Assembly (NCBI GenBank): GCA_951406725.2
Contig: OX597839.1
Coordinates: forward strand, 27,652,001-27,716,000
Reading direction: 5' to 3'
Origin: Octopus vulgaris
Lineage: Eukaryota
DNA length: 64,000 bases
The translations under genes and the position numbers were made by a program. The notes beneath the pieces were generated by a model. It was not told the DNA's origin, did not search any database, and was given only the letters and a program-made list of their open reading frames with translations. Below, piece by piece: positions 3,600-59,481 of this stretch. Positions within the stretch are counted from its first letter, which is position 1, and each line of letters opens with the position of its first letter.

Positions 3600-4630
3600 T
3601 AAAATTCATCGAGGACAAAGTATCTTATAGGATCTCATCCCTATTCCGCCAGTAAAGAATTATTCGAACAACATGCTGAATATTACAACTGCGCCTTACA
3701 ACGCACCGGATATAAAAAAAAATCCGATTGAATACCTCCCTATATGGTGTGACCCTGCCTCCACTGAACCTTGCACAACAGATACATCTGCCCCTTTAAA
3801 TAAAACACGGCGTATTCCCCGTATTACATCGTCCCCTACCCCCACTCAAAACTAATAGACAATCCTCCCACCATGTGATCCTGGATCCCAAACCTGCCGT
3901 TGCTCATCGAAATCCACACCAACGTGCACCATCATACTCCAAGCGTTGCTCGAGTAGCCCCCTAAACCGAAATAAGCAAACCAGGACACGAGACGTTATC
4001 TGGTTCCATCTCACCCCCCCCCCCCTTTGCTATTAATATTCAGTACCCAAGCTCTTCTTTGCTCTACTTGAAAAACATTTCCCTAAGTCCAGTTCCCTTG
4101 GCAAAATCTTCAACCCCCAAACGATCAAATTTTCCTACTCCACTACAACTAACAGTGCTGGTATAATTCGACGCCGGAACAATAAGGAACTTGAGAATAT
4201 TATATACAGATGCATGGTATCAACTGAGAATTCTAATTATGTATTCATCGGCTCGTACAACATCACCTTCAAGGTCAGAGTAGGTAACCACTATTCTAGC
4301 TTCAAATTCAAGGTCAGAGTAGGTAACCACTATTCTAGCTTCAAATTCAAGGTCAGAGTAGGTAACCACTATTCTAGCTTCAAATTCAAGGTCAGAGTAG
4401 GTAACCACTATTCTAGCTTCAAATTCCAAGGAAGAACTAACGATGTTTATTTTATCTCGGCTAATTCATAACCTAAAACAAAACTCAATTCTATATACTT
4501 AAAATGGTCCATTTTTACCCATGCCAAACCATATAACGATTACAACAACAAATGCGATCTATGCATCGCGGAAGTCTTTTCTATTATGCAATCCAACAAT
4601 TGTCTGAATGAAAGAAACAATTTAAATTTG
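3600..4630 (+). pseudogene. Penelope-like element remnant (RT thumb/linker and GIY-YIG endonuclease)
   Basis: Frameshifted translation gives SKELFEQHAEYYNCALQRTGY, RDVIWF..PPF, LLEKHFPKSSSLGKIFNPQTIKFSYS, NIIYRCMVSTENSNYVFIGSYNITFKVRVGNHYSSF and LKWSIFTHAKPYNDYNNKCDLCIAE...LNER. These match the PLE linker and GIY-YIG pattern. Confidence 0.85.
4268..4423 (+). repeat. Perfect 39-bp tandem repeat x4
   Basis: TTCAAGGTCAGAGTAGGTAACCACTATTCTAGCTTCAAA repeated four times in frame (FKVRVGNHYSSFK). Confidence 0.97.
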
Positions 4631-8473: not shown

Positions 8474-8879
8474 AGTATTGCACCTGCGGTCGGCTTCACC
8501 TGGGTTGACGCCCACGTTTCCCTCCTACACGGCCGAACATCGGAAAGTTTCTTCGCCGGTGATTACGCAACCTAAACTTTTAGGCCCAATAAGGATCATA
8601 CAATAACCTCACAGACTTTAAAATCGAACTGTACTCTTCAAAACTTGCACTAAGAATAAGGAAAAATTATTACCTGTTTTATAGCAAGTTGATGCAGGTA
8701 GTTTATCCCGTCCCCCTCCGACTTTTAGTTCATACAATTGAAAAAACCGCATTATTTATGGGATGACTTAATATCTTATATATGGTATTTATATATAAAG
8801 ATTTTACCTGTCTATTTTGTACCAACTACAGTTTTTTACCTCCACAAACTAAATAATATGGCTTTGTGCTAAAATTGAC

Positions 8880-56711: not shown

Positions 56712-56849
<138 letters not shown>

Positions 56850-56872
56850 CTGTATATGTATATACATATCTG

Positions 56873-56900
<28 letters not shown>

Positions 56901-56909
<9 letters not shown>

Positions 56910-57258
56910 TTAATAAGGGTGAGAGAATTAGATACTAATTTAATAGTATATTTATTCCACACCAAGTGGCCTAGTGCTACGAGAAACCTGGATTATTATA
57001 ATATTTTATAACATATTATAATATTTTCACAAAATAAATATAAGAGAGTGGTCACTATATTGATCACTCTAGCACCAGTTAATCCAAAAGGTTTCAACCA
57101 CGAAAATACATGTTTCCCATGAAAGCCAGTACGACTGTTAGCTCACACGGACAGGGCAAATAAAAAATAACAAAAATACAGATTATTTTGGGACAATTGT
57201 TTCGCTATTAATGAATTAAATGTAATATTACTTACAATAATCCATTTGTAGCTCTTCA
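56901..57258 (-). repeat. Inverted partial copy (about 358 bp) of the 533-bp unit
   Basis: Reverse complement of about 57453-57810. Confidence 0.95.
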
Positions 57259-57438
57259 CCCTTATTAATTAATTATAATTATGCTGCATTTATTTCTAAA
57301 TGCTGTATTTGTTTTCCGTGTGAGTTTGGCGCGCTGTTGGTTGGGGCATTTGAATTATAACGTCCGATGTAATCAATTGAACCGCACGCGTATTTATCGT
57401 TATGGTAAAATCTGGCGTGTGATTGAGTGGATTTCATC

Positions 57439-57532
57439 CAGATAGTCTTGGCTGAAGAGCTACAAATGGATTATTGTAAGTAATATTACATTTAATTCAT
57501 TAATAGCGAAACAATTGTCCCAAAATAATCTG
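57439..57532 (+). ncRNA. Minimal type I hammerhead ribozyme, copy 1
   Basis: CAGATAGTCTTGG-CTGAAGA-GCTA...TAGC-GAAAC-AATT-GTC^CCAAAATAATCTG; predicted cut after 57519. Confidence 0.88.
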
Positions 57533-57971
57533 TATTTTTGTTATTTTTTATTTGCCCTGTCCGTGTGAGCTAACAGTCGTACTGGCTTTCATGGGAAACA
57601 TGTATTTTCGTGGTTGAAACCTTTTGGATTAACTGGTGCTAGAGTGATCAATATAGTGACCACTCTCTTATATTTATTTTGTGAAAATATTATAATATGT
57701 TATAAAATATTATAATAATCCAGGTTTCTCGTAGCACTAGGCCACTTGGTGTGGAATAAATATACTATTAAATTAGTATCTAATTCTCTCACCCTTATTA
57801 ATTAATTATAATTATGCTGCATTTATTTCTAAATGCTGTATTTGTTTTCCGTGTGAGTTTGGCGCGCTGTTGGTTGGGGCATTTGAATTATAACGTCCGA
57901 TGTAATCAATTGAACCGCACGCGTATTTATCGTTATGGTAAAATCTGGCGTGTGATTGAGTGGATTTCATC

Positions 57972-58065
57972 CAGATAGTCTTGGCTGAAGAGCTACAAAT
58001 GGATTATTGTAAGTAATATTACATTTAATTCATTAATAGCGAAACAATTGTCCCAAAATAATCTG
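57972..58065 (+). ncRNA. Minimal type I hammerhead ribozyme, copy 2
   Basis: Identical to copy 1; predicted cut after 58052. Confidence 0.88.
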
Positions 58066-58504
58066 TATTTTTGTTATTTTTTATTTGCCCTGTCCGTGTG
58101 AGCTAACAGTCGTACTGGCTTTCATGGGAAACATGTATTTTCGTGGTTGAAACCTTTTGGATTAACTGGTGCTAGAGTGATCAATATAGTGACCACTCTC
58201 TTATATTTATTTTGTGAAAATATTATAATATGTTATAAAATATTATAATAATCCAGGTTTCTCGTAGCACTAGGCCACTTGGTGTGGAATAAATATACTA
58301 TTAAATTAGTATCTAATTCTCTCACCCTTATTAATTAATTATAATTATGCTGCATTTATTTCTAAATGCTGTATTTGTTTTCCGTGTGAGTTTGGCGCGC
58401 TGTTGGTTGGGGCATTTGAATTATAACGTCCGATGTAATCAATTGAACCGCACGCGTATTTATCGTTATGGTAAAATCTGGCGTGTGATTGAGTGGATTT
58501 CATC

Positions 58505-58598
58505 CAGATAGTCTTGGCTGAAGAGCTACAAATGGATTATTGTAAGTAATATTACATTTAATTCATTAATAGCGAAACAATTGTCCCAAAATAATCTG
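58505..58598 (+). ncRNA. Minimal type I hammerhead ribozyme, copy 3
   Basis: Identical to copy 1; predicted cut after 58585. Confidence 0.88.
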
Positions 58599-58736
58599 TA
58601 TTTTTGTTATTTTTTATTTGCCCTGTCCGTGTGAGCTAACAGTCGTACTGGCTTTCATGGGAAACATGTATTTTCGTGGTTGAAACCTTTTGGATTAACT
58701 GGTGCTAGAGTGATCAATATAGTGACCACTCTCTTA

Positions 58737-58773
<37 letters not shown>

Positions 58774-58774
58774 T

Positions 58775-58877
58775 ACAATCAGTAAGTCGTCATAATACTC
58801 AGAATTTCAAATGCCAGAGCTGAGAGCTTCTCTGGAACTTGAAACTCTGAGTATTATTGTGACAACTTACTGATTGT
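58775..58877. repeat. About 100-bp fold-back element between (TA)n tracts
   Basis: ACAATCAGTAAGTCGTCATAATACTCAGAATTTCAA..CCAGAG pairs with CTCTGG..TTGAAACTCTGAGTATTATTGTGACAACTTACTGATTGT. Confidence 0.9.
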
Positions 58878-59028: not shown

Positions 59029-59481
59029 TGTGTGTTCAACGATACAAATTAGATGATATTTTTCGAACACAAAATTGGATAAATTACCCTTTGTAACTGC
59101 AGATGGACTGTTGGCCATTTTTCTTTATTTTTCCTTCTCTCTCTCTGAACTTTCGTGTTTCCGACGAGGAGCTATGCTCGAAATGTTAACAATAACTCTC
59201 TCCCTTCACCGAGCGTCAAATTAATATATTTCTTGTGCACGTCCTCACGTTCGTTTTATTTTTATTTTTTCGCTGTTTTTTTAATTGTTCGTTTTTTTAA
59301 TTGTTCATTTAGTTGCTAGCAGAAAAACTGCCCTCCGGACGGTTTTCTGCTAGCAACTGGCTAATATTTCCATATTTGATTCCCAATTCTAATAATTTTT
59401 ATGATATTTTAAGTCTAATTATTTTCTTGTATTATAGTGCTCACTTGCTTAGTAAATATTGCTTTCATTATTTTATCACAG

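Follow-up and report, generated by a model that had tools for sequence, protein, structure and literature searches.

A young family of hammerhead-motif repeats in Octopus vulgaris, probably retrozymes, with the two-ended insertion footprint of Penelope-like elements

Metazoan non-LTR retrozymes (Cervera and de la Pena 2020, PMC7229834; Li, Clavereau and Pollet 2026, bioRxiv 10.64898/2026.07.22.740005; hereafter Li et al. 2026) are described as low-GC, ORF-less tandem units with one type I hammerhead each, dispersed as dimers to multimers, with a self-paired predicted circle and with Penelope-like elements (PLEs) in the same genome. Reverse transcription (RT) of the retrozyme circle by a PLE has already been proposed in these studies, where mobilisation via circular RNA has so far been argued from ribozyme type, co-occurrence and pLTR homology; target-site duplications, where present, exceed 4 bp. 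Endonuclease-bearing PLEs (PMC8557442, PMC3846280, PMC11167929) insert into AT-rich or (TA)n targets as a head-to-head, 5'-truncated inverted copy that has a tail on one side; RT starts internally, downstream of a hammerhead, and the junctions show microhomology. Craig et al. (PMC8557442) give the inverted truncated copy, a 30–40-bp tail at one end and a microsatellite bias as the PLE signature, and describe the origin of tandem and inverted insertions with a one-sided tail as undefined. The Poseidon PLE protein of Anolis nicks AT-rich DNA in vitro and extends both target strands (Frangieh et al., PMC11167929); it is predicted to be a dimer, RT starts at two internal RNA sites, which define the tail, and ribozyme cleavage is dispensable, with uncut RNA as the main template. 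Non-autonomous Chlamys PLEs such as MRC1 (PMC8557442) are non-coding passengers with multicopy head-to-tail insertions, match an autonomous family at their 3' end, and belong to a clade with hammerheads in only two subclades.

The element analysed here lies in a 64,000-nt stretch of Octopus vulgaris DNA (the window, to which all unprefixed positions refer) and shares with the retrozymes the make-up of the unit, its dispersal, the self-paired predicted circle and the presence of PLEs in the genome, and with the endonuclease-bearing PLEs the architecture, targets, internal RT starts and junctions of the insertions. The first-pass annotation had reported about 2.8 identical head-to-tail units of 533 bp at 56901..58742, embedded in (TA)n and without an ORF. 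Unit bases were numbered from the base after the predicted cut (57520), over a length of 533 nt. Period-533 identity is 100% over 955 bases (57256–58210 versus 57789–58743), which bears out the repeat number, as do the microsatellites on both flanks the setting; the tandem, however, is confined to the plus strand from 57256, and the first 358 bp form an exact reverse-complement arm outside it, so that the insertion reads (TA)n, minus arm, plus arm, (TA)n (Table 1). The BLAST self-match of the inverted arm covers 56901–57261, with a single mismatch at the junction, and the ribozyme in this arm is incomplete, the 5' strand of stem I being absent. At its 3' end the inverted arm stops at unit base ~291 and the plus arm at ~158, which are the fixed long (L) and short (S) ends of the family. 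This head-to-head two-armed insertion with two fixed ends, absent from the earlier annotation, is the most informative feature of the locus. Non-coding status was likewise upheld: the longest ATG-started ORF in the unit has 54 aa and the longest stop-to-stop stretch 63 aa, and no ORF with RT and GIY-YIG domains was found within or adjoining the element.

Table 1. Features of the two-armed insertion and its flanks (window coordinates; unit bases count from 57520).
Feature	Position	Strand	Basis or remark
Left target microsatellite, interrupted (TA)n	56727..56900	.	sequence
Inverted arm, 358 bp, unit bases 467–533 + 1–291	56901..57258	-	BLAST self-match
133-nt 'tail', unit bases 159–291, terminal on inverted arm only	56901..57033	-	
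Head-to-head arm junction	57256..57261	.	3-nt exact overlap (5/6 with one mismatch)
Plus arm, 2.79 identical 533-bp units, unit base 270 to 158	57256..58743	+	
Type I hammerhead motif, copy 1	57439..57532	+	predicted cut after 57519
Predicted 533-nt monomer	57520..58052	+	33% GC
Type I hammerhead motif, copy 2	57972..58065	+	predicted cut after 58052
Second predicted 533-nt monomer	58053..58585	+	
Type I hammerhead motif, copy 3	58505..58598	+	predicted cut after 58585
Right target microsatellite, (TA)n	58744..58772	.	sequence

Each plus-arm unit carries a complete type I hammerhead motif, as the first-pass annotation had stated, with all core bases, a stem I of 11 of 13 pairs, also as stated, and a stem III of 2 bp capped by a palindromic loop. 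Stem II, which had been drawn as GCUA/UAGC with a large loop, is replaced by an extended helix of 18 predicted pairs, longer than in the minimal pLTR form of PLEs (PMC8557442, PMC3846280, PMC11167929). The CUGAAGA boxes start at 57452, 57985 and 58518, and the GUC triplets end exactly at the three cut positions that had been predicted from sequence (Table 1). The hammerhead fold (−19.8 kcal/mol) lies 1.3 kcal/mol above the minimum-energy fold (−21.1 kcal/mol), and the 106-nt hammerhead fragment has a folding z of −2.7. Across the family, 188 of 196 copies retain an intact core and intact stems, the single common core variant falling at N7, a free position, and comparison with an older sister family (see below) shows stem I and stem II pairs changed on both sides with pairing kept. 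Rfam gave no hammerhead match at E ≤ 10 in 57256–57900 and none in a separate scan, and the ribozyme call therefore rests on motif, fold and covariation. The circular fold of the plus-strand unit has a z of −7.0, and strand-specific folding was rejected for this family, since the minus strand is as well folded against its own shuffles (z −7.9). Self-cleavage had been expected of dimers; a dimer is not required according to PMC7229834, where a 2-bp stem III with a tetraloop is likened to the efficient invertebrate forms, the dimer requirement is kept for amphibian ones, and most invertebrate retrozyme ribozymes are said to cleave efficiently. In Xenopus, 8 of 9 predicted retrozymes did not cleave in vitro (Li et al. 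2026). For the 533-bp family, these failures, the absent Rfam match and the equally good minus-strand fold score count against a model with a ribozyme-made circle. Unit bases ~92–102 (window ~57611–57621), which are present in the sister family too, bear what we take to be a loose likeness to a polymerase III B box, and several T runs speak against Pol III transcription of the unit.

A genome search with the unit returned 787 candidates, of which 40 were scored. An exact 24-mer of the unit matches the genome 574 times, 87 of them on contig 1 in 27 loci, which extrapolates from that contig to ~180 loci genome-wide as a rough lower bound. Sixty loci were analysed: that of the window, the 39 with the top scores, a set biased towards long arrays, and the 20 contig-1 loci not already included. 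All 60 consist of unit sequence only and are bounded mostly by (TA)n, translation having covered part of the flanks; the family is less than 1% diverged, lacks an ORF and is dispersed in multiple copies as dimers to multimers. The copy number that had been left to be checked is put at ~180 loci, and among the copies examined none has a PLE ORF with the unit as its pLTR, contrary to the reservation in the earlier annotation that every other copy might be an ordinary pLTR attached to a full PLE. Such a pLTR, or an assembly artefact, would account for an architecture that is of PLE type, and the 100% identity of the window units could also be obtained by mis-assembly; with 60 of 60 loci made of unit sequence only, (TA)n at 94 of 100 3' ends, unit-specific singletons in other arrays and the head-to-tail joint present in three of four public sequencing runs, this explanation is hardly credible.

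We assign the 533-bp element to the non-LTR retrozymes, as a very young family whose insertions bear the footprint of a PLE, and its identity as a retrozyme, proposed at first reading, is supported by family-wide motif retention and by the ORF-less dispersed multimers. The class is already described, and the family is therefore an added member of it rather than a new class. Its unit is longer than the 170–400 nt of PMC7229834 and falls within the 51–972 bp of Li et al. 2026, and its circle is a predicted one, whereas circles have been shown in the published systems. The main texts of both studies, as distinct from their supplements, make no mention of octopus, and no cephalopod retrozyme was found in the literature searched, which consisted mostly of non-subscription papers and included the same main texts. 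A cephalopod source fits the presence of a SINE of octopus type. Inverted arms are not described in the relevant passages of either study, nor is a tail in those of Li et al. 2026.

Two arms are present at 42 of the 60 loci, or at 17 of 27 when the contig-1 census is taken by itself, and the arms of all 42 are divergent. On their 3' side the arms stop at unit base ~158 (S) or ~291 (L), away from the ribozyme cleavage site; because the alignments run on into (TA)n, BLAST ends at 154–200 were binned to S and those at 284–316 to L. Every two-armed locus with both ends classifiable combined one S with one L end (39/39), none pairing like with like, which has a p of about 2e-12 under independent ends. 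Two further loci (L054 and L205) join S to an alternative long end at unit base 272 rather than 291, and the remaining two-armed locus has one end outside the fetched sequence. Single-armed loci end at S in nine cases and at L in eight, with one end outside the fetched sequence. A target-site duplication is not recognisable in these flanks, which are (TA)n. Arms measure 31 to 4293 nt, corresponding to 0.06 to 8 turns of the unit, without correlation between the two arms of a locus; the S arm is the longer in 21 of 39 loci. In 34 of 39, the L arm exceeds 140 nt and thus runs through the S site, so that strand displacement would be needed if both arms use one RNA. Arm junctions overlap by at least 3 nt in 17 of 39 loci, against 7% by chance, and by 15–26 nt at four. 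The pairing of S with L ends is not described for retrozymes in the published passages, main texts only, and this strict two-site pairing, together with the monomer-bottleneck variants reported below, is what is new here.

In L1 twin priming, two cDNAs primed from both target strands give a 5' inversion joined by microhomology. The octopus insertions differ in that neither priming site varies and the L arm continues beyond the S site, its 5' end lying near the second primer in 4 of 39 loci (3 expected), i.e. without stopping there. Alternatively, only one end might be target-primed, with a single cDNA or antisense template folding back or priming itself to give the inverted arm and the endonuclease resolving the second end; head-to-head repeats have been explained by self-priming (Arkhipova et al. 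2013, PMC3846280). Geometrically, one arm could be contained in the other at 34 of 39 loci, no more than 30 nt separates the 5' ends of the two arms at 9 of the 39 (p 0.05–0.10, permutation), the four junctions with long overlaps also fit, and the shared haplotype described below is likewise predicted. Yet containment is impossible at 5 of 39 loci, close to the 6.7–8.1 expected for independent arms, and the variable order of arm lengths, which are uncorrelated, would make either end the primary one while the other always stopped at the opposite site. Fold-back alone does not explain multimers either, and we regard this route as quite improbable.

The pattern of two fixed ends matches both the PLE inverted-copy-plus-tail footprint and a control from the same genome, and for this reason a PLE enzyme is inferred. 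The control, an autonomous family with a GIY-YIG match (PLE-3, 16 loci), showed one short and one long divergent end in all six two-armed insertions and a 63-nt tail, with only a degenerate hammerhead-like fold before its ends; long two-armed insertions were also observed in this family. Compared with endonuclease-bearing PLEs (PMC8557442, PMC3846280, PMC11167929), the 533-bp family has no ORF, its tail has 133 nt where theirs has 30–40, and both of its arms may be multimers of up to 8 units. PLE-driven mobilisation, which the first-pass annotation had considered plausible, draws support from the fixed S and L ends, the (TA)n targets and the control, and PLE machinery very probably made these insertions.

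Three protein queries and the Pfam GIY-YIG model served to collect PLE loci, one query source being a broken C-terminal PLE fragment in the window (4037–4471, plus strand; thumb and GIY-YIG-like region), in which a 39-bp unit is repeated 4.2 times. The genome holds at least six autonomous PLE families, and near-identical copies are numerous in three of them. Very young autonomous families, at least three in number, were noted at L130–L141, L142–L153, L172 and L177, with open frames of up to ~1200, 1025 and 781 aa. The fetched PLE loci, which comprised elements other than the Naiad type, showed no terminal homology to the 533-bp unit. Unit matches beside ORFs at three loci (L084, L129, L155) were discarded as evidence of a PLE partner, being separate retrozyme insertions, and those at L164 and L182 as AT-rich noise. 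The unit resembles the Chlamys PLEs (PMC8557442) as a non-coding passenger with multicopy head-to-tail insertions, but those match an autonomous family at the 3' end and no such partner was found for the unit among the loci fetched.

For divergence, substitutions only were counted, and the error-rich locus L069 was left out. Per kb, units of the same arm differ by 1.1, the two arms of a locus by 1.7 and separate loci by 7.5. At their shared variant sites the arms have the same haplotype in 34 of 36 informative loci (2 of 36 discordant), whereas 71% disagreement would be expected for arms taken from different loci. This identifies one haplotype rather than strictly one molecule, because the outcome would be no different in a cell that expressed only one source locus; both arms were probably copied from one RNA. 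Ten locus-private substitutions, in 8 loci, are fixed in every covering unit, and four of them span both arms (e.g. in 7/7 and 6/6 units). No A-to-I signature was seen among the fixed variants, A>G accounting for 3 of the 10. The other substitutions comprise 61 singletons, and at 3 loci two neighbouring units have a substitution in common. Some local duplication or conversion is thereby indicated, which contributes without dominating, given that duplication after insertion predicts neighbour sharing and this was found only at those 3 loci.

A variant fixed over 5–7 units implies repeated copying of one monomer. Together with cleavage-site crossings that are exact in 201 of 206 cases, the fixed private variants favour rolling-circle copying of one monomer as the best fit, in keeping with the recent rolling-circle RT that the first-pass annotation had read from the multimer; we hold a circular template to be fairly likely. 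The rival with most in its favour is a non-autonomous PLE derivative copied from linear, uncut multimers, with arrays grown or homogenised by unequal crossing-over and a ribozyme incidental to mobility. Uncut RNA is the dominant template of the Anolis PLE (PMC11167929), multicopy non-autonomous Chlamys elements are known (PMC8557442), local satellite-type amplification is favoured in the preprint of Li et al. 2026, and the three adjacent-unit shared variants fit. By analogy, the dispensable cleavage in Anolis would count against a circular template, and the Chlamys multicopy PLEs against a circle that depends on a ribozyme. Linear read-through is disfavoured, nevertheless, because a new variant would stay in one unit and arrays would only shorten, while arms reach 8 units; private variants fixed across both inverted multimeric arms require a template at the monomer stage, singletons far outnumber adjacent-shared variants, and the ribozyme core is kept in nearly all copies. 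We consider copying from linear multimers unlikely. Multimers could also be built by RT jumps between cleaved linear monomers, unit-length RNAs coming from the ribozyme, and template jumps have been proposed for PLEs (PMC3846280). Such jumps predict scars where the crossings are exact, arrays that are haplotype mosaics, which they are not, and 5' ends piled up at the cleavage site, within 3 nt of which 1 of 101 lies (1.3 expected); the exact junctions largely refute this very improbable route.

On balance, and with moderate confidence, we favour the reading that the protein-free 533-bp family is a non-LTR retrozyme whose monomer, predicted to cut itself out and be circularised, serves in trans as the template of a Penelope-like RT/endonuclease. 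A multimeric arm would first be transcribed, a step to which the evidence lends slight weight, and its hammerheads would release 533-nt monomers to be circularised by a host ligase, as in the described retrozymes. A PLE protein, probably a dimer, would then bind one RNA and nick both (TA)n strands, each of which would prime at its own site, unit base ~291 or ~158, as the observed ends suggest. Each RT would circle the putative circular template with strand displacement for the 0.06 to 8 turns seen in the arm lengths, and the two cDNA ends would anneal by short microhomology, consistent with the excess of overlaps, and complete each other's second strand. The more specific version, double rolling-circle target priming by a PLE dimer on one ribozyme-made circle, with sites 133 nt apart and both RTs circling together, is put forward tentatively, at somewhat less than even chances. 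If true, it would explain together the retrozyme multimers and the long-unexplained inverted-copy-plus-tail structure of PLEs.

Because the family is less than 1% diverged, occupies ~180 loci and carries no ORF, its ends, junctions and variants can be read almost as an experiment, and as judged from the genome it appears to give unusually direct evidence on the mechanism of retrozyme insertion. Two priming sites are located exactly, the ends follow a strict pairing rule, and the variants bear the mark of a monomer bottleneck. The 533-nt unit is a defined template for testing rolling-circle RT by a telomerase-related RT in vitro, and the end-and-variant analysis is a simple genomic test applicable to any other retrozyme family.

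The unit is present in 20 of 24 listed public sequencing runs, none of which is on record as RNA, and the contigs of four runs, whose RNA status is a guess, were compared with it. One run (X1) yielded a single 563-nt contig of one haplotype whose ends overlap into a closed ring (533 + 30); since a tandem array can likewise yield a cyclic contig, the run contigs do not separate a circle from a tandem transcript. Another run (X3) has a dominant haplotype at a depth of ~990, with variants absent from the loci analysed. In a third (X4), one contig end over window 57484–57513, compared by eye in one contig of depth 3, has G at 8 of 13 A positions, GAAA core included, plus one T>A. This cluster resembles what ADAR hyper-editing would leave on the ribozyme strand of a double-stranded RNA; by editing the hairpins of inverted arms, ADAR could inactivate ribozymes.

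The sister family (L095–L114, L084 and L129, e.g. L113:1069–1948) has a 534-nt unit 63% identical to the 533-bp unit, and is more numerous (2807 candidates) and older, its copies being ~90% alike. Its S and L ends are homologous to those of the 533-bp family and its tail has ~110 nt; four second arms end at other AT-rich sites. Arms are mostly about one unit long, two units being the most observed. The activity of this family is uncertain because most copies carry C at core position 4; a U-U also stands at the base of stem II, and weaker cleavage might lie behind the shorter arrays. Strand-specific folding holds for the sister family in the folding model (z −6.7 for the ribozyme strand versus −1.0 for the minus strand). 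Over the whole unit, 127 of 161 ungapped pairs are kept between the families, against 67–75 in slid controls, and 56 of 180 pairs are predicted identically; two-sided changes (23) show no excess over slid controls (20–26), whole-unit covariation was accordingly rejected, and covariation is claimed for the ribozyme stems alone.

Canonical-looking hammerheads also occur in other small elements, at L156:~8760–8860 (minus strand) and L164:6142–6613, one of which is a 470-bp head-to-head pair in (TA)n; from these motifs, further retrozyme-like families are likely present in the genome. Within the window, another repeat contains at 59160–59200 a degenerate motif resembling a hammerhead, in which the core reads CCGACGA, stem II is short and loop III is palindromic, and similar motifs are found in the flanks of L100 and L182. 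Rfam identifies a tRNA gene on the minus strand at 54816–54887 (56 bits), its anticodon being CAU. Directly to the right of the element, between two (TA)n runs, an isolated 103-bp near-perfect hairpin (58775–58877; −51.8 kcal/mol) is possibly a tiny two-armed insertion of another family.
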